Shown here piece after piece: positions 3,373-34,036 of a stretch of 45,421 bases of DNA (position 1 is its first letter; the number at the start of each line of letters is the position of its first letter). Source of the DNA: Acidimicrobiia bacterium (lineage in GTDB: Bacteria > Actinomycetota > Acidimicrobiia > Acidimicrobiales > Ilumatobacteraceae); the NCBI GenBank assembly GCA_050246915.1, contig JBFWVD010000044.1, positions 1-45,421 on the forward strand, given 5' to 3'. Under the pieces are notes generated by a model, which was not told the DNA's origin, made no database searches, and was given only the letters and a program-made list of their open reading frames with translations. A program made the position numbers and the translations under genes.

Positions 3373-3440
3373 GGTTCCGAGACTACGAGGGCTGCCGACG
3401 CGTTGACGTCTTGGCGCCCGGCCCGGAGATCTTCGGATCG

Positions 3441-4871: not shown

Positions 4872-4872
4872 G

Positions 4873-6087: not shown

Positions 6088-6887
6088 CGCGATCCACCGA
6101 TCGAGGACCGCGGGGCACGCACGTGTGTGGCGATGTCGGTGGCGATCTCGTCGGCCGTGAACTCATCGGCCACGATGCGGCCGTCACGGAACACGACCCG
6201 CCGACCGATCCGGGAGGCCAGATCGTTGTCGTGCGTGATGATCACAATGGTCGATCCCTCATCGTGCAGCTCACCAAGGAGTTCGATGATCGACGCGCTG
6301 GTCTTGGAGTCGAGCGCGCCCGTGGGTTCATCGGCGAGCACCAACGATGGACGGCCCACGATGGCGCGCGCGATGGCGACGCGTTGCTTCTCGCCTCCGG
6401 AGAGTTGGTTGGGTCGATGCCCCATGCGATGCGAGAGCCCCACCCGACGCAACGCCTCGAAGGCCCGCGCTCGCCGATCGTGGATGGCCATCCCGGTGTA
6501 CAGCAGCCCGTTGGCGACGTTGTCGAGCGCGTTCTCGCCCTCCATCAAAAAGAAGTGTTGGAACACGAAACCCACGAGGTTCGCCCGCACCGCAGACAGG
6601 CGCCGGTCCGACATGTCCGAGACGAGATGGCCGGCGATGCGCACGTCGCCCGACGTCGGCCGGTCCAGCGTTCCAACGATGTTGAGCAATGTGGACTTGC
6701 CTGATCCGGATGGACCCACGATGGCGATCATCTCGCCGGAGTCGACTCGCAGCGACACGTCGTCGAGCGCCACGACCGGAGGATTGCCCGGATAGATCTT
6801 GGACACCCCGGCCAACTCGAGCGCGGCTGGGACGTCACCGGAGTGCGGATCGGCCGCGTGGACCGCGAGCGCGTCCGACGCACTCAT
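6084..6887 (-). CDS. ABC transporter ATP-binding protein (MacB-type ATPase)
   Basis: Walker A GPSGSGKST, signature LSGGEKQRVAIARA, Walker B LVLADEPTGALD, H-loop. Confidence 0.9.
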   Translation of the reverse strand: MSASDALAVHAADPHSGDVPAALELAGVSKIYPGNPPVVALDDVSLRVDSGEMIAIVGPSGSGKSTLLNIVGTLDRPTSGDVRIAGHLVSDMSDRRLSAVRANLVGFVFQHFFLMEGENALDNVANGLLYTGMAIHDRRARAFEALRRVGLSHRMGHRPNQLSGGEKQRVAIARAIVGRPSLVLADEPTGALDSKTSASIIELLGELHDEGSTIVIITHDNDLASRIGRRVVFRDGRIVADEFTADEIATDIATHVRAPRSSIGGSR

Positions 6888-7984: not shown

Positions 7985-8772
7985 GACGTGGTCGTGGTGG
8001 TGGTCGACCCCTGGGCTGCTTGGAACGCGTCGGTGAGGATCGGCTGGCACTTGGTCAGCGCTGCGGTCACCGCCGGGTCACTCGTATCGAGCCCGAGGGC
8101 CTCGGCGATGCGCGCCGAGGGATCGCCCCCGGGTCCACGCTCGCCGCGGGCCGCGCCGTCGGGCGGTGGGCCATCGGGCGGTGCACCGTCAGCGGGAGGC
8201 CCACCGGCCGGCCCTGATCCGTTGGCAGCCGCAGAGCCGCCCGCCACCGTCGAAACCGTTGCTCCATTGGCCGTCCCGCCCGGTCGGCCGCCGCCGGGTC
8301 CCGGGAGCGTCAGGTCGCCGACGTCGAGACCCTCGCCCCGGAGGCAATCGCTGAACTTCACCATGGCGTCTTGGATCTCGGTCGAGTTGGCGAACCCACC
8401 GCGCCCGCCGCCGAACGTGACGCCCTCGATCAAGCTGGCACACGCGGTCCGGGCCGTCTCGAACTCGGGATCGGAGCGAAGATCGCCACCGCCGGCACCC
8501 GGGGTGAACAGCCGGACGTTGCCGTCGGAGTCAACGGTCGGGTCAGCGAAGCTCTCGACCCCGTTGTCCCGCATGCACTTCGCATAGGCGAGAGCTTTGT
8601 CCTCGGTGAGCTTGGAACCATCGGTGGCCAACGTGCTCACCGTCGAGCCGTCGGTCCCATCCGTGGTGAGTGTGGCGATGCCGGCGGTCTTGGTACCACC
8701 GCCGCCACACCCGACGAGCAAGACCGCGGCGAGCACGCCACTGGCAATGGTTCCGGCAGGACGCAGGGGCAT
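7981..8772 (-). CDS. Secreted lipoprotein with three Cys-containing repeat motifs (unknown function)
   Basis: Start chosen at MPLRPAG (ATG 8772-8770) with GAGGAG RBS about 8 nt upstream. Lipobox LLVGC. Repeated motif K(A/F)xxCMRDNGV..FADP / FSDCLRGEGLDV / LTKCQPIL, Gly/Pro low-complexity tracts. First gene of the ABC operon. Confidence 0.6.
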   Translation of the reverse strand: MPLRPAGTIASGVLAAVLLVGCGGGGTKTAGIATLTTDGTDGSTVSTLATDGSKLTEDKALAYAKCMRDNGVESFADPTVDSDGNVRLFTPGAGGGDLRSDPEFETARTACASLIEGVTFGGGRGGFANSTEIQDAMVKFSDCLRGEGLDVGDLTLPGPGGGRPGGTANGATVSTVAGGSAAANGSGPAGGPPADGAPPDGPPPDGAARGERGPGGDPSARIAEALGLDTSDPAVTAALTKCQPILTDAFQAAQGSTTTTTTS

Positions 8773-9025
8773 AGGGGCTCCTCGGTATGACCCCCGGCAT
8801 GGGGGCGTTCGACGTCGATCGCTGGGCGACGCATGGCACTGTGCCGACCGATGGTGAGAGCCAGTGAAGAACTCCAGAAAAGACCCCAACTTCTTGCCGA
8901 AAGTCCCCCTTCCCATTCCCCGGGCCGAGGAGTAGACCAACTGGTCGGAGCGCCGGGAAGTCTGGTCGGCACACAATCCACGGGCGTCCGTCACCTCGGC
9001 GGACACAGGGCGTCAAGGAGTCGGC

Positions 9026-11047
9026 GTGTCGCCAGTTCTCATCCTCATCATCGCAATCGTCGTTGTCGCGCTCTTCGTGCTGCTGCGATCGCTGTACTCG
9101 ATCGGACCGACCCAGGTCGGCCTCGTCAACAAACGCCTCGCCCGCAAGAAGCTCCGCGAGGGTGATCCCATCGCTTTCAACGGCGAGGCCGGCTATCAGG
9201 CCGAGCTACTCATGCCGGGTCTTCGATTCAAGTTGTGGCCGGTGTACGGCGTGGCCCGCCATCCGTGGGTGCAGGTGCCCGCTGGCGAGATCGGCGTGGT
9301 CATCGCCCAGGTCGGTGCCAACCTCCCCATCGGCGCCAAGAGCGCGGTCTACAAACCCGAGTTCGGCAACTTCTCCGACGTCGGGACGTTCCTCAGCGGT
9401 GGTGGGCAAAAGGGTGTGCAACGTCCGGTGCTGACACCGGGCACCTTGCTCCCCATCCATCCCGTGGCCTTCCTGGTCCTCACCGCCTACCAGGTGTACG
9501 GCCTCCCGGTCTCACCCGATCTGCGCGGAACCTCCAGTAAAGGTGGGTTGACACCCGAGGCCTTCGGCCTGACGCCGCAGCAGCTGAAGGTGGTGGTGAT
9601 CGCCCCCGAGGGCAACGCCGACCGCATCGGCGTCGTGACCGCGCTGGAAGGCGAGCCATTGCCATCGGGCGACATCGCGGCACGACTCGGTGGGTACGCC
9701 GACGTGTTGGCCATGGAGCAGGCCAACGCCCTCGACGCCGAGATCATCGAAGTGCTGCTCGGCAACAAGAACGGTCTGCACAACAACTATCAGGACTTCC
9801 AGAAGTTCGTTGACTCCGGCGGCCGCATCGGTCTGCAGCACGATCCGCTGCTCTACGGCGCCTATCTGCTCAACCCGTTCCTCGTGTCGGTGGAGCTCGT
9901 ACCGATGCTGGTGGTCAAGCAAGGTGAGGTGGCCGTGGTGAAGGCCTTCGTCGGCCTTCCCACCCTCGACACCTCGGGTGCGGAGTTCAAGTTCGGGTCC
10001 ATCGTCCGTCCCGGCCATCGCGGTATCTGGGAAGAGCCGCTGCGCACCGGCAAGTACCCGATCAACCCCCGTTGCTACGCGGCTGAGATCGTGCCGACGT
10101 CGATCCTCACCCTCAACTGGTCCAACGAGGTGAGCCGCGCGCACTCGCTCGACGCCAACCTCGGACCCATCGAGGGCAAGAGCCGTGAGGGTTTCGTGTT
10201 CACCATCGAACTGCAGGTGCAGATCCACGTTCCCGACACCAAGGCCCCGAAGGTCATCTCGATGGTCGGCACCATGCTCAACCTGGTGAACGAAGTGCTG
10301 CAATCCGCGGTGGGCAACCACTTCCGCAACACCTTGCAGGACCTCGAGGCAGTTCGCTTCATCGAGACCCGTATGGAAGTGCAACGAGCGGCGCTGTCGG
10401 CGGTCACCGAGTACCTCGGCGCATACGAGGTGGAGACCAAGGGCGTCTACATCCAGAATGTGAACTTCCCGGCCGAGCTGGTGGAGGTCCTCACCGAGCG
10501 AGAGATCGCCAAGCAGGAGCGAGCCACCTTCGAAGAGCAGCAGCGGGCCCAGACCGCTCGAATCGAGACCGAGAAGGCACGCGGTACCGCCGACATGCAA
10601 GGCCAATTGGCATCGTCGGAAGTGTCGATCTCCATCAACTCCAACCGAGCCGATGCCCGCGAAGCCGAAGCCCGAGGCGAGGCCGCGTTCGTTCGTACCA
10701 CCGGCGAGGCCGAAGCCGCCAGGATCCAGGCCATCGGTCTGGCCGAGGCCAAGGCCACCGAAGCGTTGGGACTGGCCAAGGCCGAGGGCTTCGAAGCTCA
10801 GCAACGGGCCCTGGGTGCGGCAGCCACCGCCATCGTGGCCGTGGCCAACGCCGTGGCAGACGGCAACATCAAGGTGGTGCCCGACGTGCTCGTGGCCGGG
10901 TCGAACGGCGGCAGCGGGTCGATCGAAGGGCTGGCCGCTGCACTCATCAAGATGGTGCAGGGCAAGAACGCCGCCGAGGACCGAGCCGCTGCCGTCGAGG
11001 CCGCTGAGCTGCCGCCGCCGGAGAGCGCCGAATCCGCACCCCAGTGA
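9026..11047 (+). CDS. Flotillin-like SPFH/band-7 family protein
   Basis: GTG start with AAGGAG RBS 7 nt upstream. N-terminal TM helix, SPFH domain, long Glu/Ala/Arg-rich coiled-coil tail. 673 aa. Confidence 0.8.
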   Translation: MSPVLILIIAIVVVALFVLLRSLYSIGPTQVGLVNKRLARKKLREGDPIAFNGEAGYQAELLMPGLRFKLWPVYGVARHPWVQVPAGEIGVVIAQVGANLPIGAKSAVYKPEFGNFSDVGTFLSGGGQKGVQRPVLTPGTLLPIHPVAFLVLTAYQVYGLPVSPDLRGTSSKGGLTPEAFGLTPQQLKVVVIAPEGNADRIGVVTALEGEPLPSGDIAARLGGYADVLAMEQANALDAEIIEVLLGNKNGLHNNYQDFQKFVDSGGRIGLQHDPLLYGAYLLNPFLVSVELVPMLVVKQGEVAVVKAFVGLPTLDTSGAEFKFGSIVRPGHRGIWEEPLRTGKYPINPRCYAAEIVPTSILTLNWSNEVSRAHSLDANLGPIEGKSREGFVFTIELQVQIHVPDTKAPKVISMVGTMLNLVNEVLQSAVGNHFRNTLQDLEAVRFIETRMEVQRAALSAVTEYLGAYEVETKGVYIQNVNFPAELVEVLTEREIAKQERATFEEQQRAQTARIETEKARGTADMQGQLASSEVSISINSNRADAREAEARGEAAFVRTTGEAEAARIQAIGLAEAKATEALGLAKAEGFEAQQRALGAAATAIVAVANAVADGNIKVVPDVLVAGSNGGSGSIEGLAAALIKMVQGKNAAEDRAAAVEAAELPPPESAESAPQ

Positions 11048-17571: not shown

Positions 17572-19980
17572 TCACACATCGACCTCGCTCACCGCAGCTT
17601 GCACCGGCCGGTCACGCGGCAGCACGTCGAAGATCGATGGCGGTTCGGTCCACACATCGCGCTGCGGCACGTTCGACTGTTCGGCGCGGCGAGCCGCGTC
17701 GATGGCGCGCCAGACCCGCTCCGGAGTGCACGGCATGTCGACATGCCGCACCCCGAGATGCGTCAGCGCATCGACGACCGCGCTCTGCACCGCAGGAGTC
17801 GAACCGATGGTGCCGGACTCTCCGATCCCCTTGGCGCCCAAGGGGTTCAGCGGTGTCGGGGTCTGAGTGTTGAAGGTCTCGAAGCTCGGGAGTTCGGCCG
17901 CGCTCACCATCGCATACTCCGCCAGCGTCGACGTGAGCGGATTGCCGTCCTCGTCGTAGACGAACTCCTCGAACAGCGCCTGTCCAATACCGGAGGCGAT
18001 GCCGCCGTGCTGCTGCCCGGCCACGATCATGGGGTTCACCACGGTGCCGCAATCGTCGACGGCGATGTGGCGCAACAACTCGACCTTGCCGGTCTCGGTG
18101 TCGATCTCGACGACGGCGACGTGCGCGCCAAAGGGGAAGGTCGCGCCGCCCTGCGCCTGATCGAGGGCCACCGACAGCGGTGATCCTGACGACTCGAGTT
18201 CGTGTCGGGCGATGTCTGCCCAACTCACCGTGCGCGCCGGCACTCCCGCGACGCCGAGGGTCCCGTCACCGACGACGATGATGTCGGCCGGATCTGCCTC
18301 GAGAACCCGCGCCGCGATCTCGCGTGCCCGCACCACCATCTCCCTCGACGCCATCAGGACGGCCGATCCACCCAACTGCAGTGAACGCGAACCGCCCGTG
18401 CCCCCGCCGCGCGGCACCAACGCCGTGTCGGACTGCACGTAGCGGATGTTGTCGAGGTCGATGCCGAGCGTGTCGGCTGCGATCGTGCCAAAGGTGGTGG
18501 CGTGCCCTTGTCCGTGTCCGGACGTGCCAACCGAGACCGTGGCCGTGCCGTCGACCTCGATGACGACGCTGGCGTACTCCTGTCCCGACCCGCCGGCGGT
18601 GATCTCCACGTACGTCGAGACGCCGATGCCGATCTGCTTCACATCTGCGCGTTCACGCCGTTGCTGCTGTTCGCGACGCAGCTCGGCGTATCCCGCTCGG
18701 TCGAGTGCCTCGTCGAGCGACGCCCTGTAGTCCCCGACGTCGTAGCGGGCACCGGTGACCGTGGTGTACGGGAACGCATCCGAGCTCAACAAGTTCTTGC
18801 GCCGAATGTCGACCGCGTCCAGAGACAGTTCATGAGCGGCCATGTCCATGATGCGTTCCAAGAACGCGGCGGCCTCGGGGCGTCCCGCACCTCGGTACGC
18901 ACCGGTGGGCGTGGTGTTGGTGACGGCGACCGCACCGCTGAAGCTGATCTTCGGGATCTCGTAGGGGCCTTGTGCCATGAGTCGCGTCGGCCCGATGGCA
19001 AGACGACCACCGAAGCCGGCATAGGCACCCCCGTCGCCGATGACGCGAGCCCGCATCCCGGTGATGCGTCCAGCGCGGGTGAACCCCATCTCGATGTAGT
19101 GCACCTGGGCGCGACCATGTGGTTGCGACAGCAGGTGCTCGGAACGGGTGTCGGCCCAGGCGACAGGACGAGCGAGGCGCAACGCTGCGGCGATGGCCAC
19201 GAAGTGCTCGGCGAGGACGCCGACCTTGCCGCCGAACCCTCCACCGACGTGCGGGGCGATGACCCGGAGCGAATCGGGGGACAGACCCAAGGACCTGGTG
19301 GCGAGGCGCAAGAAGCCATGCGGCTGCTGGGTCGACAGATGAACGGTCGCCACGTACGGATCGGCGGGATCGATGGCGGGAACGACGGTGATGGCGTTGC
19401 CTTCCATCGGCATGATCGCCAACCGCTGGTTCACGAACCGGCCACGGACGATCACCTCGGCGTCGTCGAGCGCCCCATCGTGGAGCGTCCAGTCATCGTC
19501 GAGCAACGATGCGGCCAGGTTGCGGTCGACGTCAGCGAACAACAGCGGCGCGCCGGGAGCGAGTGCATCCTCGGGGTCGACGACAGCCTCGAGCGGCGTG
19601 TAGTCCACATCCACGACGGCGGCGCCGTCAGCGGCCGCGACCTTCGACGTCGCCACCACGACGGCGACGGCCTCGCCGACATAGCGGACGCGATCGACCG
19701 CAAGCGGCGGTTGGGCGATGGAGGGGTGCAGCACCACGCCGAACAGATTGAAGCGCGGCAACTGGAGATCGGCCGCCGTGTAGACGGCCACGACGCCATC
19801 GACGGCGAGCGCCCCGTCGATGTCGATGGCCCCGAGTTCCGCATGCGCATACGGACTGCGCACGAACGCCAGGTGGAGCAGACCGGGGATCCGGAAGCTG
19901 TCGACGAAGGTGGTGTGACCGGTGAGCAGATCGGGGTCCTCGACGCGGATGACGGACGTTCCGATGAGTGATCCGGGCAT
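17572..19980 (-). CDS. Xanthine dehydrogenase/CO-dehydrogenase large-subunit family molybdopterin enzyme (form II CoxL-like, AYRGAGR motif)
   Basis: 802 aa, aldehyde oxidase/xanthine DH a/b hammerhead plus MoCo-binding domains. Active-site loop reads TGAYRGAGRPE (form II/putative type, not the VAYRCSFR of true CODH). Confidence 0.85.
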   Translation of the reverse strand: MPGSLIGTSVIRVEDPDLLTGHTTFVDSFRIPGLLHLAFVRSPYAHAELGAIDIDGALAVDGVVAVYTAADLQLPRFNLFGVVLHPSIAQPPLAVDRVRYVGEAVAVVVATSKVAAADGAAVVDVDYTPLEAVVDPEDALAPGAPLLFADVDRNLAASLLDDDWTLHDGALDDAEVIVRGRFVNQRLAIMPMEGNAITVVPAIDPADPYVATVHLSTQQPHGFLRLATRSLGLSPDSLRVIAPHVGGGFGGKVGVLAEHFVAIAAALRLARPVAWADTRSEHLLSQPHGRAQVHYIEMGFTRAGRITGMRARVIGDGGAYAGFGGRLAIGPTRLMAQGPYEIPKISFSGAVAVTNTTPTGAYRGAGRPEAAAFLERIMDMAAHELSLDAVDIRRKNLLSSDAFPYTTVTGARYDVGDYRASLDEALDRAGYAELRREQQQRRERADVKQIGIGVSTYVEITAGGSGQEYASVVIEVDGTATVSVGTSGHGQGHATTFGTIAADTLGIDLDNIRYVQSDTALVPRGGGTGGSRSLQLGGSAVLMASREMVVRAREIAARVLEADPADIIVVGDGTLGVAGVPARTVSWADIARHELESSGSPLSVALDQAQGGATFPFGAHVAVVEIDTETGKVELLRHIAVDDCGTVVNPMIVAGQQHGGIASGIGQALFEEFVYDEDGNPLTSTLAEYAMVSAAELPSFETFNTQTPTPLNPLGAKGIGESGTIGSTPAVQSAVVDALTHLGVRHVDMPCTPERVWRAIDAARRAEQSNVPQRDVWTEPPSIFDVLPRDRPVQAAVSEVDV

Positions 19981-19996
19981 GGATCGACGTTATGGG

Positions 19997-21556
19997 ATGC
20001 ACGCAGATCGCGACGACCGACCCGAGGACCTACAGTCGAAAACGATGTTCCCCGAGACCGACGATCAGATCCGAGTGCAGAAGGCGAGCGAACTCGTCGC
20101 GGATCGGATCCGCCGACGGATCGTGCGCGGGGACCTCCCCGTGGGCACCCGCCTCCCGCCAGAGGAAGAGCTCATGGCGTCGTTCGGGGTGGCGCGGACC
20201 ACATTGCGCGAGGCCCTACGGGTCCTCGAGGCACAAGGCCTCCTTCGGATTCGTCGCGGTCGAGGTGGGGGCGGGGTCGTCACCCTTCCCACGCTCACCC
20301 AGGCCAGCGAGACGCTGGGGGCGTACCTCCAGCTGAATCGGGTCCGGCGCGGCGATCTCGATGACGCGAGGCTGATGTTCGAGCCGGCGTTGGCGGCCAA
20401 CCTCGCCCGAACACAACGGCCCGAGGACCTCGCCGTGCTCGACGGTTTCGTCGACGCGGCCTCGCAAGCCGCTGCTGCTGATGACCGACCGGCGTTCGGC
20501 GCCGCGGCGGCAGGACTGCACATCGCCATCGTGGAGCGCGGCGGCAACATCACCTTGGCCACGCTCGGAGCTCTGCTCGTCGATCTCGCCAGTTGGCGAT
20601 ACGCGACCGGGGCGAGCCAAGCCACCAAGGAACAGATGCGGCGGGCCGCGAAGTCATACGCGAAGTTGACAGCGTTGGTCCGTTCCGGCGACCCGGAACT
20701 CGTGCAGGCGCATTGGCATTCGCAGTTGAGCTATCTGGCCACTCGCGACTCTGATCGCGAGATCGGCCTCGACCTCACCGGCACGCGTGAGAGCACCAAC
20801 TCCGCATGGTTCGGTCCCGTCGGCGCACCGGGCGCGAGCGCGCCAGAGGTGAAGACGAGCCGCCTCGTCGCCAACGAGTTGCGGAGGCGGATCCTGTCCG
20901 GACAGTTGCAGATCGGCGATCGACTCCCGGTGGAGGAAGAGCTCACCGCGGCGTTCGGGATCGCCCGCACCACGCTGCGCGAAGCACTACGCATCTTGGA
21001 GGCGGCCGGTTTGATCACCATCCGCCGTGGACGCGGTGGCGGCGGCACGGTGACGCTCCCGTCGCTCGAGCATCTCGCGCTGCCGATCGTGACCGTGCTG
21101 CAGATGCAGCACACGACGCTCGGCGATCTCGGCGCTGCCCTCGAGATCATCGAGCCCCAGCTGGCCGGGCAGCTGGCCGTCACGCGCACTGCCGCTGACC
21201 TCGCGGCCATGAACGCCATCGTGAGCCGAGCCTTCATCGCTGCCGCGCAAGAGGACAACGCCGAAACGCGTCTCGCCAACTTGGCCATGCATCGCCTGGT
21301 CATCGAACGCGCCGGCAACACCACCGTGACGGGCCTCATGACCCTCATCAACGATGCGGTGACTCGCAGCTTGGTGTACTCGACCGCAGAGACGAGCCCG
21401 GACCAGCTGACCATCGTTGCCAAGTCATTGCGACGCCTCGTGAGCATGGTGCAAGCGGGCGACGCAGCTGGGGCGACCGAACATTGGAAGCGACACCTCG
21501 CCGTGCTTCGTCACGTTCGAAAGAGCGTCGCCGACGTGGAGATCTACGACCTCTGA
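19997..21556 (+). CDS. Single-chain tandem GntR/FadR-family regulator (two complete HTH + FCD modules in one polypeptide)
   Basis: Two successive GntR winged-HTH segments (…LPPEEELMASFGVARTTLREALRVLEAQGLLRIRRGRGGG… and …LPVEEELTAAFGIARTTLREALRILEAAGLITIRRGRGGG…), each followed by an ~130-aa helical FCD-like domain. The start is uncertain (ATG 19997 or 20045); the 19922 start would overlap the divergent CoxL-like gene. Confidence 0.7.
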   Translation: MHADRDDRPEDLQSKTMFPETDDQIRVQKASELVADRIRRRIVRGDLPVGTRLPPEEELMASFGVARTTLREALRVLEAQGLLRIRRGRGGGGVVTLPTLTQASETLGAYLQLNRVRRGDLDDARLMFEPALAANLARTQRPEDLAVLDGFVDAASQAAAADDRPAFGAAAAGLHIAIVERGGNITLATLGALLVDLASWRYATGASQATKEQMRRAAKSYAKLTALVRSGDPELVQAHWHSQLSYLATRDSDREIGLDLTGTRESTNSAWFGPVGAPGASAPEVKTSRLVANELRRRILSGQLQIGDRLPVEEELTAAFGIARTTLREALRILEAAGLITIRRGRGGGGTVTLPSLEHLALPIVTVLQMQHTTLGDLGAALEIIEPQLAGQLAVTRTAADLAAMNAIVSRAFIAAAQEDNAETRLANLAMHRLVIERAGNTTVTGLMTLINDAVTRSLVYSTAETSPDQLTIVAKSLRRLVSMVQAGDAAGATEHWKRHLAVLRHVRKSVADVEIYDL

Positions 21557-22436: not shown

Positions 22437-22512
22437 TGGTGGGCCGCCTGGGACTCGAACCCAGAACCAGCGGATTAAAAGTCCGATGCTCTGCCAATTG
22501 AGCTAGCGGCCC
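22437..22512 (-). tRNA. tRNA-Lys (anticodon UUU)
   Basis: Reverse complement reads GGGCCGCTAGCTCAATTGGCAGAGCATCGGACTTTTAATCCGCTGGTTCTGGGTTCGAGTCCCAGGCGGCCCACCA. 7-bp acceptor stem, D-arm, anticodon loop CTTTTAA (UUU), T-arm GGTTCGAGTCC, encoded CCA. Confidence 0.85.
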
Positions 22513-25014: not shown

Positions 25015-27174
25015 GTGACGCGCGCGCACGTACGAGACGATGAGAGGGGGTTCACCCTCATCGAGTTGATGGTGGTGGTTCTCGTCATCGCCGTGCTGCT
25101 CGCGATCGCCATCCCCAGCTTCTTCGGTGCGCGCACCAGAGCACAGGCACTCGCCGCTCGTTCGACGCTCACCCAGGCGCTCGACGTCGCAACGGTGACT
25201 CTCGCCGAGGCCACGACCATCGGCTCGGAACCACTTTCAACAACGGTGGCCCGTCTCCAGGCGCAAGAGACGTCGTACACGTTCACGGCCGCAGTGTCGA
25301 CTGGTCCCAGCGTCGTGTCCGTCGCTACCGCATCGGGCAACATCACCTTGGCGGTGGCGGGCACCGACGGCACCTGTGTCATCGGCACCAGCCGCTCGAC
25401 CGGTCGGATCACCGCGGACACGACCGGTGCGTGCCTCGCGACCACATTCCTGTCATCGACACTGCTCAACCCGACCGGCACGACCACCACTGCGGCGACC
25501 ACCACGACAGTTGTTCCGACGACCACCACGACGCCCACGACGACAACCGCTGCGACGCCGCTCACAACCGTGCGACTCCTCAGCAGCACTGGCGCACCGC
25601 TGTCGGGCGGTTCGGTCACCTATGTGCTCGGTGGGTACACCTACACCTTCGGTACGACCGGCTCGAACGGCTCGGCCACGGCGAACCTGTCGCCCGGCTC
25701 GGTCACGATCAACCTCGACTACGCCGGAGGACGGGCGAGCACCGTGGCCACTGTTGGGCCGGGCACCGTCATCACCTTCACCACGGTGCCGGTCACCGTC
25801 CAGTTGCTCTCATCCACCGGCACCGGCATCGCCGGTGCAACCGTGGACTACTTCAACCCGTACTGGAACACACTCGGCACCACCAACGCCTCCGGCACCG
25901 CCACCAAAGAGATGCTCCCCGCGACATACAGCACATTGCAGCTCGACTACGCCGGCGGGACCAACACCCGCACCAACGTCTCCATCACCGGCGCCACCAC
26001 CCTCACCTTCACCACTGTGCCCGTCACCGTCGACTTCCGGACGTCCACTGGTACGCCCATCGCCGGTGCAACCGTGAACTACTTCAACCCGTACTGGAAC
26101 ACACTCGGCACCACCAACGCCTCCGGCACCGCCACCAAGGAAATGCTCACCGGCACCTATAGCCAACTCGATCTCGTGTACGCCGGCGCAACGAGCAGCC
26201 GAACCAACGTGTCCATCACCGGGGCGACCACGATCACCTTTGCCACGGTGCCGGTCACTGTCCAGCTGCGCTCATCCACCGGTACGCCCATCGCCGGCGC
26301 GGACATCAACTACTTCAACCCGTACTGGAACACACTCGGCACCACCAACGCCTCCGGCACCGCCACCAAAGAGATGCTCCCCGCGACGTACAGCACATTG
26401 CAGATCGACTACGCCGGCGGGACCAACACCCGCACCAACGTCGCCATCACCGGCGCCACCACCATCACCTTCACCACCGTCCCCGTCACCGTCGACTTCC
26501 GGACGTCCACCGGTACCGGCATCGCCGGCGCGGACATCAACTACTTCAACCCGTACTGGAACACACTCGGCACCACCAACGCCTCCGGCACCGCCACCAA
26601 GGAAATGCTCACCGGCACCTACAGCCAACTCGATCTCGTGTACGCCGGCGCAACGAGCAGCCGAACCAACGTCTCGATCACCGGGGCGACCACGATCACC
26701 TTTGCCACGGTGCCGGTCACCGTCCAGCTGCTCTCATCCACCGGCACCGGCATCGCCGGCGCAACCGTGAACTACTTCAACCCGTACTGGAACACACTCG
26801 GCACCACCAACGCCTCCGGCACCGCCACCAAAGAGATGCTCCCCGCGACATACAGCACATTGCAGCTCGACTACGCCGGCGGGACCAACACCCGCACCAA
26901 CGTCGCCATCACCGGCGCCACCACCATCACCTTCACCACCGTCCCCGTCACCATCACAGTGCTCAACGGTTCGGGCACCTCGGTATCAGGAGCGACGGTC
27001 AGCTACGCCAATCCGTATTGGAACTCGTTCGGCACCACCGGTGCTGGCGGCGTTGTAGCGAAGGAGATGTTGCCCGACAACTACGACTCGATCACGGCGA
27101 GCTGGACCGGCGGCACTGCGCAGCGAACCAACGTTGCCGTCACGGCAGCCACGTCGTTGACGTTGAGCCCCTAG
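25015..27174 (+). CDS. Type IV pilin-like protein (prepilin leader + N-methylation site + pilin globular domain with D-region Cys pair) fused to nine tandem ~77-aa beta-sandwich (CarboxypepD_reg/Cna-B-like) repeats
   Basis: GTG start. Leader MTRAHVRDDERG followed by FTLIELMVVVLVIAVLLAIAIPSF (class III signal, E at +5). C…C pair GTCVIGTSRSTGRITADTTGAC. Thr-rich linker, then repeats TFTTVPVTV(Q/D)…YFNPYWNTLGTTNASGTATKEML…YAGGTNTRTNV. The antisense ORFs 24918-25619 and 25810-26628 were rejected. Confidence 0.7.
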   Translation: MTRAHVRDDERGFTLIELMVVVLVIAVLLAIAIPSFFGARTRAQALAARSTLTQALDVATVTLAEATTIGSEPLSTTVARLQAQETSYTFTAAVSTGPSVVSVATASGNITLAVAGTDGTCVIGTSRSTGRITADTTGACLATTFLSSTLLNPTGTTTTAATTTTVVPTTTTTPTTTTAATPLTTVRLLSSTGAPLSGGSVTYVLGGYTYTFGTTGSNGSATANLSPGSVTINLDYAGGRASTVATVGPGTVITFTTVPVTVQLLSSTGTGIAGATVDYFNPYWNTLGTTNASGTATKEMLPATYSTLQLDYAGGTNTRTNVSITGATTLTFTTVPVTVDFRTSTGTPIAGATVNYFNPYWNTLGTTNASGTATKEMLTGTYSQLDLVYAGATSSRTNVSITGATTITFATVPVTVQLRSSTGTPIAGADINYFNPYWNTLGTTNASGTATKEMLPATYSTLQIDYAGGTNTRTNVAITGATTITFTTVPVTVDFRTSTGTGIAGADINYFNPYWNTLGTTNASGTATKEMLTGTYSQLDLVYAGATSSRTNVSITGATTITFATVPVTVQLLSSTGTGIAGATVNYFNPYWNTLGTTNASGTATKEMLPATYSTLQLDYAGGTNTRTNVAITGATTITFTTVPVTITVLNGSGTSVSGATVSYANPYWNSFGTTGAGGVVAKEMLPDNYDSITASWTGGTAQRTNVAVTAATSLTLSP
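25790..26945. repeat. Higher-order tandem DNA repeat: 462-bp unit (two alternating 231-bp subunits), about 2.5 copies, >90% identical
   Basis: Identical antisense ORFs are displaced by 462 bp (25810-26166 vs 26272-26628). The protein repeats alternate between Q-type and D-type variants. Confidence 0.85.
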
Positions 27175-27235: not shown

Positions 27236-28090
27236 ATGGATCTCCACGCCTATCTCGGCCTGCAGCCCACCGCCGACCCCTTGCGGTGGACGCTCGAGCT
27301 CAACGATCGCATCACCACCCCACAGCACTTCATGAACGGAGGGTCGGGTTTCGCGGCGTGCATGTCTGCCTTCGAGAACGTGACCGGTCGACCCGTCGTG
27401 TGGGCCTCATGCCACTTCGAATCGTTCGTGTATGCGCCCGCAGTCCTGGAGATCGATCTCGCCCTGCATCGCGAAGGGGGCACGACCTCGCACGGCCGTG
27501 CCGTGCTGCGCAACGGGGACGACACCATCTTGTCGGTCGACGTTGCCCTCGGCCGGCGGGCCGACGGGTTCGAGGGAACGTGGCTGACACGCCCACAGGC
27601 CCCCGATCCACGCGACTGCGCCCGCATCGATCTGAAGACGGCGGGGCCAGCCGAGCGATCCATCGCCGATCACACCGACATGCGACGCGCCATCGGTCGT
27701 ACGGTCGACCAGTTCGATGGAACACCCAGCGATGGTCATTCCGCGCTCTGGATCCACATGGACACCATGTCGGGCCCGGTGACTGCAGGCGAGTTGGCCA
27801 TCGTCGCCGACTTCGTGCCGTTCGACATCGGTCAGCCGCTGGGGCAGAACCTCACCGGTTCGAGCATCGACAACACGTTGCGCATGTGCGAGCTACGGCA
27901 GACCGACTGGGTGCTGCTCGACATCCACATGCATGCGATGCATCGCAACGTGATGCACGCAACGGCGGGACTGTGGGCCGAGGACGGAACGCTGCTCGGC
28001 CTGGCCAGCCAGACGATGCTCGCTCGTCCGGCCGGGAAGATGCCGCCGAAGGCTCCTGATCACTCGATCGAGTCGGACCCGACGTCGTAG
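27236..28090 (+). CDS. Acyl-CoA thioesterase, TesB-like (double hot-dog)
   Basis: 284 aa, two hot-dog-like halves; size and GGSGFAA region resemble acyl-CoA thioesterase II. Family assignment is tentative. Confidence 0.5.
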   Translation: MDLHAYLGLQPTADPLRWTLELNDRITTPQHFMNGGSGFAACMSAFENVTGRPVVWASCHFESFVYAPAVLEIDLALHREGGTTSHGRAVLRNGDDTILSVDVALGRRADGFEGTWLTRPQAPDPRDCARIDLKTAGPAERSIADHTDMRRAIGRTVDQFDGTPSDGHSALWIHMDTMSGPVTAGELAIVADFVPFDIGQPLGQNLTGSSIDNTLRMCELRQTDWVLLDIHMHAMHRNVMHATAGLWAEDGTLLGLASQTMLARPAGKMPPKAPDHSIESDPTS

Positions 28091-30117
28091 CGCAGGAGCA
28101 CGCGTGCGGCGGCCGCGGCCGGGAGCCCGACGAAGCGCTCGGGCGATTCGACGACCACACCTGGGCCGATCTGCAAGAGCAACCGCTCGAGCCACCGCTC
28201 ATCGGCGACCGGGAGCTCGATTCGACAGCGATCTGCACCAGAACTGGAGAGCGTCGCCGGGTGGACCTCGCCCACCCAAGCAGCGCGCGCCGGCGCAGTG
28301 AGCACGACGACCTCGGAGCCTTCGGGCGGCCACGGCGCCCGCTTGCGGGGAGCCGATCGTTCGAAGGTCTCGCCGGAGGGCTCGACATCGAGAACGCGGT
28401 CGATGCGGAAGCGACGCACGGTCTCGCTGCTGCGATCCCATCCGTCGAGATACCAGCGCCCGGCGTCGAGCACCACGTCGAGCGGCTCGATCCAGCGTCC
28501 TTCGCTGATGCGATTGGAGGTAGCGGCGAAGTAGTCGATGCGCACCAACCGGCGATCGCGCACCGCGGCCCGTAACACCGGAACGTGTGCCGGTGTGTCG
28601 AGCGCGACGCGCAAGAATTGCGCGGCATCAAGCGATCGCCGCACCTTGTCGAGAGCGGAAGCCAGCGCATCGCGGCGTTTGGGTTCGGTCACCTCGAGCA
28701 GCACCTGACCGGCCGTGCACACCGCGAGCACCTCCGCGGATGTCAGTTCCCCCGGCCCGGCAGGCTGAAGCACCGGAACCGGGCTCATGCTCACCTCGAC
28801 AGTGCTGGGGTCAGCGCTCGGATCATCGAGCACGCCATCGACGTCGTCACCGTCGTCGAACACGATCTCGAACAGATCCTCGGTGTTGTACGGCGGCACC
28901 CCGCACACCGACGCCAGCTGCAGATCCTCCATCACGGTGGACGCCGGCACACCAAAGCGCGAGGCCAACTCCGACACCGCAACAGCGCGGCCGTCTTGGC
29001 GCGACAGCCATGTGAGCATCGCCATCGTTCGTCGCAGCCAACGCATCGCCGGCTGCGTCTTCTGCGGGCCCGACGCCGCTCGCGCTTGCGGTGCAACGCT
29101 GGCACGAGGTCGAGACCGGCGCGCCGACTCGAGCGATGAGGCCTCCGTGGAGCGCATGGCCTTCAACCAGTCCGTGACGAACTCCACCATCTCTGGTGGC
29201 CCGACCACCCAGGCATCGTCTCCGAAGCCGAGGACCCAGGTGCGCAGGGCTTCGGGAAACGACACCGCCAGCCGCACGATCACGCCGTTGTCACCGTCGG
29301 GTCCGTCACCGGTGACCTCGGCGATCACCGACCCCGAACGCAACGTCGACTCGACCCACACTGCCAACGGCCCCCGCACCGCGACGTCGACCATGACCGG
29401 CTCGCCCTGCGGGATGGCCCACGACTCGCTCGGCATGACCTGTTCGGGATCCCACTCCTGCGGTCGTTCGAACGCTCCGGGCTCCCCCACCGTCACACCG
29501 CTCATGCGGTCGATGCGGTAGGTGCGGACCCCATCGCCGATGAGCTCGCCCGACACGTACCAGTTCGTGCGGCGCATCAAAAGCCCGAACGGTCGAACCC
29601 GATGGGGCCGTCCGTTGTAGACGAACTCGACCTCGCATCCCAGCGACGCCGCTCGCAGCAGATCGCCGACCTCACTCGGCGCGCTCAGATCACCCACCGG
29701 CAGATCGGCCAGTGGATCGCTGCCCCCTAGCTTCCACAGTGCGAACGTGTCGGCTTCGCCAGTGAGGTCGACCAGTGACAGCGCTTGACGAATGGCACCG
29801 GCCTCGACGTCGGTGAGCCCGAACTCGGGCAGGACGCTGCGTTCGGGGGAGATCCGATAGGCCCAACGGTCGCTCTGGTCGGCCTCGGTCCGATCACCGC
29901 GGTCCACGGTCTCCACCGGAAACCCGTTCAACCCGAGCTGACGCCGATCGCGCACGAACTCCTGCCGGGCGTTCTCGCGTACGTCGGAGAACCCGGGCAC
30001 CGTCTCGATGATCTCCGTCAGGGTGTGCCCGTCGGAGTTCAACAGCATCGTCACCAGGTTCAAAAGCCGTTCTCGCCGCTCCGCCGCCATCGACCCCATC
30101 GTGACAGACCGCGTCAT
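28060..30117 (-). CDS. Fused double HTH-WYL-WCX transcriptional regulator (PafBC-like single chain)
   Basis: Two modules, each with an N-terminal winged-HTH (ERLLNLVTMLL… / MRWLRRTMAMLTWL…) and a WYL domain (RRTNWYVSG… / DAGRWYLDGWD). 685 aa. The start may lie at an internal Met (30090-30117). The 3' end overlaps the thioesterase 3' end by 31 bp (convergent). Confidence 0.65.
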   Translation of the reverse strand: MTRSVTMGSMAAERRERLLNLVTMLLNSDGHTLTEIIETVPGFSDVRENARQEFVRDRRQLGLNGFPVETVDRGDRTEADQSDRWAYRISPERSVLPEFGLTDVEAGAIRQALSLVDLTGEADTFALWKLGGSDPLADLPVGDLSAPSEVGDLLRAASLGCEVEFVYNGRPHRVRPFGLLMRRTNWYVSGELIGDGVRTYRIDRMSGVTVGEPGAFERPQEWDPEQVMPSESWAIPQGEPVMVDVAVRGPLAVWVESTLRSGSVIAEVTGDGPDGDNGVIVRLAVSFPEALRTWVLGFGDDAWVVGPPEMVEFVTDWLKAMRSTEASSLESARRSRPRASVAPQARAASGPQKTQPAMRWLRRTMAMLTWLSRQDGRAVAVSELASRFGVPASTVMEDLQLASVCGVPPYNTEDLFEIVFDDGDDVDGVLDDPSADPSTVEVSMSPVPVLQPAGPGELTSAEVLAVCTAGQVLLEVTEPKRRDALASALDKVRRSLDAAQFLRVALDTPAHVPVLRAAVRDRRLVRIDYFAATSNRISEGRWIEPLDVVLDAGRWYLDGWDRSSETVRRFRIDRVLDVEPSGETFERSAPRKRAPWPPEGSEVVVLTAPARAAWVGEVHPATLSSSGADRCRIELPVADERWLERLLLQIGPGVVVESPERFVGLPAAAAARVLLRYDVGSDSIE

Positions 30118-30167
30118 CCGGTCGCAGACGCAACGGTCCGCGCCTGGCCACGATCGATCGGCGCCCA

Positions 30168-30596
30168 GTGGGTCGGCAGTGGTTCAATGGCCCCGTGGCC
30201 CAGAGCGAACCGAACCCCCAGACCGCTGATCTCACCATCTTGGGGGCGACGGTCCGTCATCCGGTGGAGCACGTGGAGTGTTTCCCCGCACCGAAGAACG
30301 TCCGCATCGTCCGTTTCACCAACGACGAGCTGAACTCCATGTGTCCGGTCACTCAGCAGCCAGATCTGTCGACGGTCGTCATCGAGTACGAACCCGATCA
30401 ACGCTGTGTCGAGTCCAAGAGTCTCAAGCTCTACCTGTGGAGCTTTCGTGACAAGGCCGTGTTCGCCGAAGCGATGGCCGCACAGATCGCCGAGGAGATC
30501 ATGTCCTCCGCGCAGCCCCGACGTGTCACGGTCACCTTGACGCAACGTCCTCGCGGCGGGATCGAAGTTCAAGCCATCGCGGAGCTGTGTCGCTGA
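30168..30596 (+). CDS. queF: NADPH-dependent 7-cyano-7-deazaguanine reductase (preQ1 synthase), type I QueF
   Basis: GTG start. Catalytic Cys motif NDELNSMCPVTQQPD and the QueF motif ESKSLKLYLWSFR. 142 aa. Confidence 0.8.
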   Translation: MGRQWFNGPVAQSEPNPQTADLTILGATVRHPVEHVECFPAPKNVRIVRFTNDELNSMCPVTQQPDLSTVVIEYEPDQRCVESKSLKLYLWSFRDKAVFAEAMAAQIAEEIMSSAQPRRVTVTLTQRPRGGIEVQAIAELCR

Positions 30597-30731: not shown

Positions 30732-32042
30732 GTGCCTGTCTCATCTGATGAAGTCGCCCACCTCCTCCGGCGCGCCGGGTTCGGCGGTACGAGTGCGGAG
30801 ATCGCCGCGCTCACCAGCTTGAACCTGGACCGTGCCGGGTTGGTCAACCGAATCCTCGATCTCTCCTCGGCCCCGCCGGACACCATGCCAGCGTTCATCA
30901 CCGACGAGAACCTCGGCGAGTGGGAACGGGTCGAGAAGCTCATCATGTGGTGGATCGACCGCATGGCGACCTCCCCGTGTCCGCTGTCGGAGAAGATGAC
31001 CTTGTTCTGGCACGGCCACTTCGTGGTCGGCCGCGACAAGGTGCAGTGTCCACGGCATCTCTACGACCAGCTGCATCTGTTCCGCACCAATGCGCTGGGG
31101 AACTTCCGAGATCTCACCCGTGCCGTCGGGCGCGATCCGGCGATGCTCGTGTACCTCGACAACGATCCCAACGAGGTCGGCAGCCCCAACGAGAACTTCG
31201 CACGCGAACTGATGGAGCTGTTCACCCTCGGCCTCGATCAGTACACGCAGGACGACATCATCGCTTCGGCACGCGCCTGGACGGGCCATGGCCTCACCGA
31301 GTCCGAGACCTACCCGGTGTACGAGTTCCATCCCACCAAGCACGACAACGGCAACAAGACGTTCTTCGGCACGACCCGCAACTGGGATGGTCCCGAGATC
31401 ATCGATGAGATCTGCAACGGTGCGAAGCGACCGATCATGGCGCGCTTCATCGCCAAGAAGGTGTTCTCGTTCTTCGCGTACCCGGGCCCGAGCGACACGA
31501 TCGTGCAGCAGTTGGCTGACGTGTTCATCGCCAACGGGCTGTCGATACGTGAGCTGGTTCGGGCCGTGTTCATGCACGATCAGTTCTGGTCGGACACCGC
31601 CCGCAACGGCCTCATCCGCACGCCGGTGGAGTTCGCGGTCGCCGCCATCCGCCACACCGGTGTCGGCACGTACGACGCCAACCCGCAGTGGTGGTTGTCG
31701 GAGATGGGGCAGAAGCCGCTCGAGCCACCGAACGTGGCCGGCTGGAAGCAGAACGCCTACTGGCTCAGTGCAACGTCGCTGTGGGCCAAGGCGTCGTTCG
31801 CCCAGAACCTCGGATGGAAGGTGGGTGAGGGCAGCCTGCTCGAGGATCTGAAGGCCAACACCCTTACCCCGTCAGCCGCAATTCAAATTGCGTTCGATCG
31901 TTTCGGTATCACCAATCCGTCGCCGCAGACCAGGCAACGCCTCGAGAGTTGGATCGCCACCGAGCGGGCCAACGATCGCTGGTTCATCCCACCGGGGCTC
32001 ACCACCGCCCTGCTGCTCACCCCGGAGTTCCAGCTGGCATGA
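30732..32042 (+). CDS. DUF1800 family protein
   Basis: GTG start. Hallmark N-terminus VAHLLRRAGFG and the conserved WHGHF/LGNF blocks. 436 aa. Confidence 0.8.
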   Translation: MPVSSDEVAHLLRRAGFGGTSAEIAALTSLNLDRAGLVNRILDLSSAPPDTMPAFITDENLGEWERVEKLIMWWIDRMATSPCPLSEKMTLFWHGHFVVGRDKVQCPRHLYDQLHLFRTNALGNFRDLTRAVGRDPAMLVYLDNDPNEVGSPNENFARELMELFTLGLDQYTQDDIIASARAWTGHGLTESETYPVYEFHPTKHDNGNKTFFGTTRNWDGPEIIDEICNGAKRPIMARFIAKKVFSFFAYPGPSDTIVQQLADVFIANGLSIRELVRAVFMHDQFWSDTARNGLIRTPVEFAVAAIRHTGVGTYDANPQWWLSEMGQKPLEPPNVAGWKQNAYWLSATSLWAKASFAQNLGWKVGEGSLLEDLKANTLTPSAAIQIAFDRFGITNPSPQTRQRLESWIATERANDRWFIPPGLTTALLLTPEFQLA

Positions 32043-34036
32043 CCGATCACAAGCAACTCTCCTTGCATCGCCGGCACTTCCTCCAAGCCGCGCTGGCCAC
32101 CGGCGCAGCGTCGCTGGTTCCGGACTTCCTCCGCTTCGGTCAAGCCCAGGCCGCAACTCCGGTTGCCGCCAACGAGGGCATCTTGGTCCTGGTGACCTTG
32201 GCCGGCGGTAACGACGGCCTCAACACGGTCATCCCCATCGACTCGAGTCGCTATCGCGATCTCCGCGGCGGCTTGGCCATCACCCGCGCCCATGGGGCGC
32301 ACGACATCGGCAACGGGTTCGCGCTGCATCCATCGTTGAGCGCTCTCAAGCGTCGCTTCGATCAAGGGACCGTGGCCATCGTGCAGGGCGTCGGCTATCC
32401 CGACCCGAACCTGTCGCATTTCGACTCCATGGGCGAATGGATGACCGGTTGGGGTGGCGCAGGCCATCCCGGCACCGGTTGGGTCGGCCGCTGGCTCGAT
32501 GGCTTGCCCAATCCCGACTCTCTTCGGCTGGTGTCCATCGGCGGCAACGTCCCTCCGCATCTACGTGGCGCGTCGTACTCCGGCGTGGCGCTACCACCGG
32601 ACATGGACAGCGCTTTCGGGACCGATCGATCCGAGGACTACTACGCGCGGCTCATCGATCTGGTGAGCTCCTACGGCGCCAGCCCCAACTCGCGCGGAGC
32701 GTGGGCCGATCGCATCGGACTGCTCGAGCGAGAGACCATCGCGCTCGGCAATCAAGTGTCTCCCGCCTACAACGACATCGAAGGCGACGGCCTGACGCGC
32801 GAACTGCGCCTCGTCGCCGGTCTCATCAACGCCAACGTCGGCGTGCGGGTGTTCAGCGTGGAGATGGGCGGGTTCGACACCCACGAAGGCCAAGCCGGCG
32901 ATCATGCCGCGCTGCTGGCCGAGCTCGACGCCGCCATCGATGCGTTCTTCACCAAGCTCTCCAGTCGCTTCTTGTCCCGCGTCACGCTCATGACCTTGTC
33001 CGAGTTCGGTCGCCGACCCGAAGCGAACGGTTCGAGCGGCACCGACCACGGCACCGCTGCTCCCCTGTTCGTGATCGGTCAAGGCGTACGAGGCGGGTTC
33101 CACTCAACGGCCCCATCCCTGACCGCGCTCGATGAGGACGACAACCTGGTGGCCACCTGCGACTTCCGCCAGGTGTATGCGTCGATGCTGAGCGGTTGGC
33201 TCAGCGCACCGTCCCAACCCATCCTGGGGCGGGCGTACACGCCGTTCGATCTCTTCCGCTGGGGACCTGGCGGGCCGACTGCCTCGGGTGGCGGAACGGC
33301 CGGTACCGGGTACTGGACACTCACCAACAACGGACAGGTCACGGCGTTCGGCGGCGTGAGCGCCATGGGCAACGCGCCGTCCAGCGTCAGTGCGGTGGCC
33401 ATCGCTTCAACACCGTTCAAGGACGGCTACTGGATCACCACGGCGACGGGCGCCGTCTACCCCTACGGCTCCGCGGTGCATTGGGGCGACATGGCCGGCA
33501 CCAAACTGGCCTCGCCGATCGTGGACATGGTCTCCACCCCATCGGGGATGGGCTACTGGTTGCTCGGCCGCGACGGCGGCGTGTTCAGCTTCGGAGACGC
33601 CGAGTTCTACGGGTCCACCGGCAACCTCAAACTGGCGGCGCCCGTCGTCGGCATGGCGGCATGCCCCAGCGGACGGGGCTACTGGTTCGTGGCCGCCGAT
33701 GGCGGCATCTTCGCTTTCGGTCCCGATGCGCAGTTCTACGGATCGACCGGTGACCTTCGGCTGTCCCAACCCGTCGTAGCCATGGCCCCGACGCCAAGTG
33801 GCAAGGGCTATTGGCTGGTCGCTCGTGACGGAGGCGTGTTCGCCTTCGGTGACGCGCCGTTTCGTGGTTCGACGGGAGACATCACGCTCAACCAGCCGAT
33901 CATCGGCATCGTGCCGACGCCGACCGGCGACGGCTACTGGTTCGTGGCATCCGACGGCGGCGTGTTCGCCTTCGGCGACGCGCCGTTCCTCGGTTCTGCC
34001 GTCGACGGCGGAGCCAGCGTCGTGGCCATGGCTTGA
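32039..34036 (+). CDS. DUF1501 family protein (Tat signal) with ~230-aa C-terminal extension of six GYW…DGGVFAFGDAxFxGS repeats (propeller-like)
   Basis: ATG 32039 in ATGA overlap with the DUF1800 stop. Twin-arginine motif HRRHFLQAALATGAASL. DUF1501 core with GGxDxHxxQ-type blocks (MGGFDTHEGQ). Six ~43-aa repeats at the C-terminus. Confidence 0.8.
   Translation: MTDHKQLSLHRRHFLQAALATGAASLVPDFLRFGQAQAATPVAANEGILVLVTLAGGNDGLNTVIPIDSSRYRDLRGGLAITRAHGAHDIGNGFALHPSLSALKRRFDQGTVAIVQGVGYPDPNLSHFDSMGEWMTGWGGAGHPGTGWVGRWLDGLPNPDSLRLVSIGGNVPPHLRGASYSGVALPPDMDSAFGTDRSEDYYARLIDLVSSYGASPNSRGAWADRIGLLERETIALGNQVSPAYNDIEGDGLTRELRLVAGLINANVGVRVFSVEMGGFDTHEGQAGDHAALLAELDAAIDAFFTKLSSRFLSRVTLMTLSEFGRRPEANGSSGTDHGTAAPLFVIGQGVRGGFHSTAPSLTALDEDDNLVATCDFRQVYASMLSGWLSAPSQPILGRAYTPFDLFRWGPGGPTASGGGTAGTGYWTLTNNGQVTAFGGVSAMGNAPSSVSAVAIASTPFKDGYWITTATGAVYPYGSAVHWGDMAGTKLASPIVDMVSTPSGMGYWLLGRDGGVFSFGDAEFYGSTGNLKLAAPVVGMAACPSGRGYWFVAADGGIFAFGPDAQFYGSTGDLRLSQPVVAMAPTPSGKGYWLVARDGGVFAFGDAPFRGSTGDITLNQPIIGIVPTPTGDGYWFVASDGGVFAFGDAPFLGSAVDGGASVVAMA

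Follow-up and report, generated by a model that had tools for sequence, protein, structure and literature searches.

The locus described here raises the question of whether a regulator built like PafBC, the chief mycobacterial activator of the DNA-damage response and the prototype of 'sigma adaptation', can belong to a branch of its family that stands apart from the Pup-proteasome system (PPS), and if so, what such a protein reads and controls. The window analyzed is a whole 45,421-bp contig from an Acidimicrobiia metagenome-assembled genome (MAG), with a GC content of 66% and an even base composition along its length. On its minus strand, the longest open reading frame (ORF) at 28060..30117 (685 aa, with coding-type composition and a third-position GC content (GC3) of 0.81) was described in the original prediction as a fused double helix-turn-helix (HTH)-WYL-WCX regulator resembling PafBC, situated away from any proteasome genes and divergent from queF. 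In reviews, PafBC is presented as closely tied to the PPS locus (PMC8223512), and conservation of the arginines R46 and R50 of its PafB-type HTH (HTH-B, M. smegmatis numbering) and of the GTC triplet in the promoter is called near absolute across actinobacteria (PMC8635444); a site just downstream of pafA has also been used as an identity check for PafBC (PMC6789036). A sizeable sister branch, comprising approximately half of 132 scored sequences, breaks both rules, and the window gene falls within it. We put at roughly 55% the probability that this gene encodes a single-chain PafBC-family activator of a distinct sub-branch outside the PPS locus, which would sense single-stranded DNA (ssDNA), act by sigma adaptation, and probably possess an altered promoter specificity.

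The ORF encodes a genuine single-chain PafBC-family protein. In a phmmer search against all PDB sequences, the best match was the fused PafBC 6SJ9 (residues 12-677 against 2-662, E 5e-25), followed by the separate M. smegmatis proteins of 7P5X, with PafC matching the C-terminal half (E 3e-17) and PafB the N-terminal half (E 5e-12). Foldseek comparison of an AlphaFold2 model (built from a 20-sequence alignment, with a mean predicted local distance difference test (pLDDT) score of 77) also returned 6SJ9 first (E 3e-29, 724 aligned columns), then PafC and PafB, and then DriD, BrxR, and CapW. The fused, PafBC-like architecture proposed originally is thus borne out by the assignment of each half and by the end-to-end alignment with 6SJ9. 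A frameshift or assembly artefact as the cause of the fusion was ruled out, as the single fused ORF recurs in three NCBI MAGs from independent assemblies and also in relatives as distant as 47% identity. Similarity between the two halves is slight (33% identity over 60 aa, E 0.003), which rules out a recent internal duplication and therefore points to an ancient PafB-PafC pair carried on a single chain. The fusion alone is not new, because natural PafBC fusions ('class C' WYL proteins) have already been described in Kocuria, Thermobifida, and Arthrobacter (PMC6789036). What is new is the grouping, in which the type of recognition helix tracks genomic context.

NCBI annotates the identical protein (MGE3326995.1, 100% identity) as 676 aa, starting at M10 of the longest ORF; the proteins in sister MAGs are MGE0308369.1 and MGD9795993.1. 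Since this Met also aligns with Met1 of PafB, the true start is probably at 30090, giving a coding sequence at 28060..30090 (minus strand, as are all parts of the gene below) that is supported by the ORF itself, GC3, Pfam, and the end-to-end 6SJ9 match, the longest ORF extending to the ATG at 30117. The protein comprises two HTH-WYL-WCX modules, PafB-like and then PafC-like, in which Pfam recognizes WYL and WCX stretches (two of each) and a single HTH_PafC domain (PF19187), the last in the second module only. No Pfam model matches the N-terminal HTH, which aligns with the winged HTH of PafB in 7P5X and with that of 6SJ9. The AlphaFold2 model contains three N-terminal helices and a wing, a WYL domain, a WCX domain, a disordered linker (321-346), and a second HTH-WYL-WCX set. 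The PafB-type winged HTH-B (residues ~1-80 of the 676-aa form, 29851..30090) was delimited by alignment with M. smegmatis PafB (~1-80) and 6SJ9, with modelled helices at 2-16, 24-30, and 38-54 and strands at 59-63 and 76-80; its recognition helix, 'RENARQEFVRDRRQLGL', was placed by alignments at 29929..29979. It is followed by the Sm-fold ligand domain WYL-B (residues ~150-205, 29476..29643, the first Pfam WYL stretch) and by WCX-B (residues ~232-312, 29155..29397, where the best PF25583 stretch covers 241-321 in 685-aa numbering). The inter-module linker (residues ~321-346, 29053..29130) has a pLDDT below 50 and corresponds to gapped, unconserved columns in alignment A1, and both its length and its sequence vary among the regulator's relatives. 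The second module consists of the PafC-type HTH-C (28636..29037; PF19187 over 361-494 in 685-aa numbering, E 9.5e-15), which matches PafC of 7P5X, WYL-C (28378..28587; best Pfam WYL stretch 511-580 in 685-aa numbering, also aligned with PafC and 6SJ9), which contains 'GRWYLDGWD', and WCX-C (28096..28323, limits approximate; second Pfam WCX stretch and AlphaFold2 elements at 593-675).

The most informative departure from characterized PafBC proteins lies in HTH-B. In M. smegmatis, R46 and R50 read both guanines in the GTC of the -26 element (PMC8635444). The recognition helix reads 'ENARQEFVRDRR' in the window protein versus 'DEAFSRMFERDK' in M. smegmatis: R50 is matched by R47, R46 by Gln (Q43), and the core Phe44 by Ala, and the position of S45, one residue before that of R46, is taken by an invariant Arg (R42). 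R42, F45, R47, and D48 are invariant in alignments A1-A3. Of the canonical PafBC features, the regulator lacks R46 and pafA-locus linkage. The ligand-binding side is better preserved. In M. smegmatis, the double Arg and aromatic residue of the WYL beta4/beta5 loop, together with the WYL Tyr, are needed for ssDNA binding and activation (PMC6789036, PMC11804915), and ssDNA is contacted by R181, Y196, R204, R208, R211, and R214 of PafB and by R201 and R204 of PafC (PMC11804915). Both WYL domains of the window protein retain the double Arg and aromatic residue ('VRTYRIDR' and 'RRFRIDRV') and the WYL Tyr ('NWYVSG' and 'RWYLDGW'), and WYL-B retains the equivalents of R208, R211, R214, and Y196. For the window itself, the gene is a credible candidate for an ssDNA-responsive activator.

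The genomic setting of the regulator agrees with its original description as separated from proteasome genes: pafA, pup, prcAB, and mpa are all absent from the 45.4-kb contig according to Pfam (Pup_ligase, Pup, Proteasome, and Mpa domains), and a tblastn search of the window with the PPS proteins of locus L020 gave no match. This separation extends to its relatives. The family comprises 2331 cluster representatives at E<=1e-30, and contigs for context analysis came in part from a metagenome search with the clade alignment as query (six relevant loci) and a genome search with a single protein query (one relevant locus, L005). Genomic context was thereby covered for 17 lineages, 7 PPS-linked and 10 non-PPS. 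The PPS-linked set includes M. smegmatis and A. aurescens, both taken from the literature; L020, in which mpa-dop-pup-prcBA-pafA is followed first by a fused pafBC and then, at a greater distance downstream, by tatC; L005 (Acidimicrobiales MAG RYN_34), L024, and L025, with the order prcA-pafA-DUF3866-pafB-pafC; and L051, where a DUF3866 fragment lies directly upstream of pafB. R46 is kept in all seven. The non-PPS lineages have diverse neighbors: queF is divergent in the window and in P0002, a fasciclin gene lies upstream in P0005, a DUF4352 gene is divergent in P0004, and P0006 has a same-strand gene without assigned function upstream and a prophage-like block downstream. In P0007/P0012, pgi is located upstream and an RNase T-like exonuclease gene is convergent; P0016, P0021, and P0022 carry a TrwC-domain gene downstream and a convergent TraG-like gene; and the split pair P0084 has a convergent PolB-exo-like exonuclease gene. 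In all ten, the helix follows the pattern A/V-R-x-x-F-x-R-D-K, with Arg at 45 and no Arg at 46.

The same partition appears in a neighbor-joining tree of 135 PafB halves, where, of 200 bootstraps, 85% contain a split between non-PPS and PPS-linked proteins and 99% one between the non-PPS proteins and the Acidimicrobiales-type PPS-linked proteins alone, and where the nearest neighbors of the window clade are R45-type in 200/200 replicates. Among the 132 sequences scored, which were drawn from the top 150 representatives and matches from earlier searches, 66 are R45-type (fused and split) and 63 carry R46. Within each group, fused proteins are mixed with split ones, and fusion therefore arose repeatedly.

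Comparison with known systems places the window protein closest to PafBC while setting it apart from each characterized member. With A. aurescens PafBC (6SJ9), its top match in both sequence and fold, it shares a single chain in the order HTH-WYL-WCX, linker, HTH-WYL-WCX, PafB then PafC, with the WYL double Arg and aromatic residue kept in both halves; it differs in that structural-alignment identity is ~21%, that its HTH-B has Gln at the position of A. aurescens R44 (M. smegmatis R46) and Ala at the core Phe, and that it lies outside the PPS locus that contains the A. aurescens gene (PMC6789036). M. smegmatis PafB/PafC (7P5X, 9FND) performs ssDNA-activated sigma adaptation at tGTCgg-N10-tA-N3-T (RecA-NDp) promoters; here the correspondence covers PafB in the N half, PafC with its type of HTH in the C half, and the equivalents of R50, R208, R211, R214, and Y196, whereas the window protein is fused, has R46 replaced by Gln, R181 by His, and R204 by Gly, and is not in an operon with pafA, and no canonical motif was detected in its contig. 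The PPS-linked Acidimicrobiales proteins (L005, L024, and L025; fused in L020) come from the same bacterial class and have the same domain set and Arg45 at 29-35% identity, but they occur in prcA-pafA-DUF3866-pafB-pafC or pafA-pafBC arrangements and keep both F44 and R46 ('FRRAFERDK'), and the window protein belongs to a separate clade.

These comparisons also bear on a simpler explanation, namely that the protein is the only PafBC of its genome, having moved from or outlived the PPS locus, and serves as the master LexA-independent damage activator on canonical RecA-NDp promoters, with the exchange of Arg45 for Arg46 being neutral. End-to-end PafBC homology, the PafB-PafC order, the WYL arginines, and the retained R50 are all consistent with such a role, and R45 may already aid DNA contact in Acidimicrobiales, since the PPS-linked proteins there carry both R45 and R46. 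However, PafA and PPS loci with their own pafB and pafC are widespread in Acidimicrobiales (a PafA search gave >8000 matches), and the non-PPS proteins form a separate clade that is not nested among the PPS-linked ones. The search for the PafBC/RecA-NDp motif suggested along with the original prediction likewise gave no support: the long form TGTCRGTG-N8-TANNNT has no site at <=1 mismatch in the contig, and the short form GTCGG-N10-TANNNT occurs at 27 sites versus 20.9 +/- 4.8 expected, none of them in the spacer between the regulator and queF, a weak test given that the contig carries no classical repair genes (recA, uvr, imu). On balance, we regard the role of sole, canonical PafBC as rather unlikely.

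For the favored reading of a PafBC-type activator in a distinct, proteasome-independent branch, a mechanism can be drawn by analogy with M. smegmatis PafBC, from which we infer the ssDNA ligand, sigma adaptation, and the change in DNA specificity. ssDNA arising from DNA damage or processing would bind the Arg-lined groove or tunnel of the two WYL/WCX modules, and the activated protein would then insert between promoter DNA and sigma-A domain 4, with HTH-C touching sigma and HTH-B reading an upstream element that replaces the -35 element. This upstream element is probably not the canonical GTC-containing -26 element, because the base-reading Arg46 is replaced and an invariant Arg stands one residue earlier. 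The regulon may accordingly differ from, or add to, the canonical PafBC regulon, and the steady separation from the proteasome locus suggests that it could be uncoupled from pupylation, unlike in mycobacteria.

Several points weigh against this reading. A low global TM-score (0.26-0.28) was obtained against 6SJ9, and the likeness is therefore domain by domain and not one of shared overall conformation. The ligand and the mode of activation are transferred from characterized PafBC proteins to which structural-alignment identity is 21-24%, and in the window clade, WYL-B has His in place of R181, a residue that M. smegmatis PafB requires to bind ssDNA, and Gly in place of R204. The guanine contacted by R46 might still be within reach of an Arg at position 45, so that altered specificity is not proven. 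The association between helix type and context involves few lineages (17), and the tree is built from simple distances, with the 85% support for its main split being moderate. Finally, adjacency to queF is kept in a relative at 58% identity, with the two starts nearly abutting, which makes local regulation possible.

If the reading is correct, sigma adaptation by PafBC-type proteins would have diversified in promoter specificity, and functional coupling to pupylation would not be obligatory. The correlation between context and helix type points to a proteasome-independent PafBC sub-family, possibly with re-wired promoter specificity, and the R45 branch would offer a natural variant set for how HTH-B encodes promoter choice. 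A broader proposal, which we advance only tentatively, is that Acidimicrobiia, and perhaps other deep-branching Actinomycetota, possess in each cell both a canonical PPS-linked PafB/PafC, which would recognize -26 elements of the GTC type, and a proteasome-independent, often fused paralogue, whose altered HTH-B (Arg45 in place of Arg46) would steer sigma adaptation triggered by ssDNA towards another promoter class and a regulon of its own. The regulon of the paralogue would then include neighboring DNA-processing genes (TrwC/TraG-like, DEDD exonuclease) in some lineages and possibly queF in the window.

Such neighbors were recorded at several of the related loci. In three distant, unlinked lineages, a gene for a TrwC relaxase domain begins 30-57 bp after the fused gene and is followed by a convergent gene for a TraG/VirD4-like coupling protein (L018 4695-7110; L045/L046 12007-14645; L047 12127-15950), with chromosomal synteny (CofC, gpsA) otherwise kept; an ssDNA-sensing regulator might act locally on these TrwC/TraG-like neighbors. 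In L004 (12115-12786), L021 (12080-12664), and L048 (2556-3206), the gene convergent to the PafBC-like gene or pair encodes a DEDD-type 3'-5' exonuclease (RNase_T or PolB-exo-like). At the Acidimicrobiales PPS loci, DUF3866 (Pfam E 7.6e-109) lies between pafA and pafB (L005 2502-3563, L024 4953-5924, L025 1810-2781, L051 1-297). In L003, the region 3' of P0006 (47% identity to the window protein) contains approximately 18 small same-strand genes without a Pfam match, together with HTH_31, MerR/HTH_17-like, and DUF1643 genes (2386-9639), and resembles a prophage or mobile element that has inserted there.

What the regulator controls locally was originally sought in its divergent neighbor, and the identification of that neighbor as queF holds. 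The gene (30168..30596, plus strand; TIGR03139, Pfam QueF) encodes a unimodular preQ1 synthase (NADPH-dependent 7-cyano-7-deazaguanine reductase) and scores 105.9 bits against TIGR03139 (QueF-II), above the curated cut-off of 86.9, as expected of a standard equivalog; its translation includes the catalytic-Cys motif 'SMCPVTQQPD' and the E-S-K-S-x-K-L-Y motif as 'ESKSLKLYLWSF'. In agreement with the earlier statement that queC, queD, and queE lie outside the window, none of these genes, nor tgt, was present among the main ORFs scanned there, and no dpdA was found near queF. The spacer was originally given as 50 bp, which is right if the longest ORFs are taken (start 30117) and too short with the M10 start, from which the spacer (30091..30167) measures at least 77 bp; overall it spans 50-104 bp, being longer if queF starts at the GTG at 30195.

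From this arrangement it had been proposed that the regulator binds the divergent spacer and co-regulates itself and queF, so that preQ1/7-deazaguanine synthesis would be coupled to a signal from stress or ssDNA. The short spacer is in keeping with this proposal, as are the WYL regulators BrxR, CapW, and SiwR, which control adjacent genes (PMC9122588, PMC10693628), and the 58%-identical relative P0002, the only other lineage with a divergent queF, in which the called starts of the two genes are 5 bp apart. Beyond these two lineages, however, adjacency is lost in 3/3 other sub-lineages of the window clade (47-48% identity), where the upstream neighbor is a fasciclin gene, a DUF4352 gene, or a same-strand gene without assigned function, and in every more distant relative; by tblastn, QueF is present in no fetched locus other than those of the window and P0002. 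The queF itself is of the standard type with no queCDE, tgt, or dpdA nearby, and alignment of the spacers from the two queF-linked loci reveals nothing in common past the regulator's first codons. No TA dinucleotide occurs in 30091-30194, and no TANNNT (-10) sequence was found on either strand in 29900-30260, that is, within ~200 bp; the promoters of the regulator and queF must therefore be non-canonical or lie further inside the neighboring coding sequences. Both queF-linked loci belong to a conserved oriC-proximal region, with gyrB-gyrA-DUF3566 beside the P0002 locus (L001) and, at the right end of the window, the actinobacterial cluster pstP-rodA-pbpA-pknB with trpG (Pfam), so shared ancestry of gene order suffices to explain the adjacency. 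Co-regulation with queF is thus unsupported, the link is probably not real, and we infer an absence of queF control, the proposal itself being very unlikely.

Other candidate control elements around the spacer were also considered. Two one-mismatch PafBC motif sites at 29983 and 30031, in the 5' coding region of the regulator and facing queF, were rejected, as their GTC is unconserved in L001. A scan for sigma-70 promoters and terminators over 27-31 kb returned none, and Rfam gave neither a preQ1 nor any other riboswitch near the locus (E<=1) or in the whole window at gathering score, where the sole match is a tRNA-Lys at 22437-22512. Repeats within the spacer are limited to chance-level stretches of 8-19 nt, none conserved in L001.

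One feature is shared by the two queF-linked lineages upstream of the regulator. The nine codons before its annotated start (30097-30117 in the window, 7615-7640 in L001) match only those of P0002 in 'T-M-G-(S/P)-M-A', and 'CACGATGGGKYCSATGGC' is common to both at the DNA level, which would mean either that the two lineages use a start lying further upstream or that a short DNA element is conserved there.

On its other side, the regulator is convergent with an acyl-CoA thioesterase-like gene (27236..28090, plus strand; Pfam 4HBT_3C, E 1.3e-12), the 3' end of which overlaps that of the regulator by 31 bp as read from the stop codons, in accordance with the original description. This gene is absent from the related loci, and both queF and the thioesterase appear to owe their place beside the regulator to a gene order specific to the lineage in this oriC-proximal region.

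It had further been noted that WYL regulators frequently control anti-phage systems. Read in this way, the regulator would be a WYL controller of a defense system or mobile element comparable to BrxR, CapW, and CRISPR-associated WYL proteins, and generic CRISPR-associated WYL models of PADLOC do match the regulator itself; the TrwC-relaxase and TraG-like genes that follow the gene in three distant R45-type lineages and the small prophage-like genes downstream in L003 could be taken in the same sense. However, no PADLOC family matches any of the nine neighboring proteins, the composition of the contig is uniform, and tblastn detected no TrwC or TraG homologue in the window. Furthermore, DriD (8TP8), BrxR (7T8K), and CapW (7TB6) share the HTH-WYL-WCX module fold, and the WYL domain of DriD and CapW is a documented ssDNA sensor (PMC9186387), but they are one-module homodimers, often beside their target operon, and match with E 1e-9 to 1e-5 versus 1e-29 for PafBC; the closest match is the double-module PafB-PafC. 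Given the two modules, the PADLOC-negative neighbors, and the weaker fold matches, assignment as a defense-associated WYL regulator (BrxR, CapW, CRISPR WYL1) was rejected, and a defense or mobile-element role is highly improbable.

Several additional features were observed elsewhere on the contig. A 544-aa ORF at 19922-21556 (plus strand) contains two GntR HTH and two FCD domains, making it a second tandem-fused 'double' regulator on the contig, and it is divergent from a gene for a xanthine-dehydrogenase-type molybdopterin subunit at 17572-19980 (minus strand). The region at 23.5-27 kb has a strongly negative GC skew (-0.17 to -0.39), and at 25015-27174 (plus strand), a 719-aa protein is encoded in which a type IV pilin-like N-terminal methylation motif is followed by approximately seven long Thr-rich repeats ('NYFNPYWNTLGTTNASGTATKEML...'). 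Immediately 3' of queF, a DUF1800/DUF1501 (twin-arginine translocation (TAT)-signal) pair occupies 30732-34036 (plus strand), and the DUF1501 protein bears a C-terminal extension of repeated 'GYW..(A/S)DGGVF(A/S)FGDA.F.GS' units.

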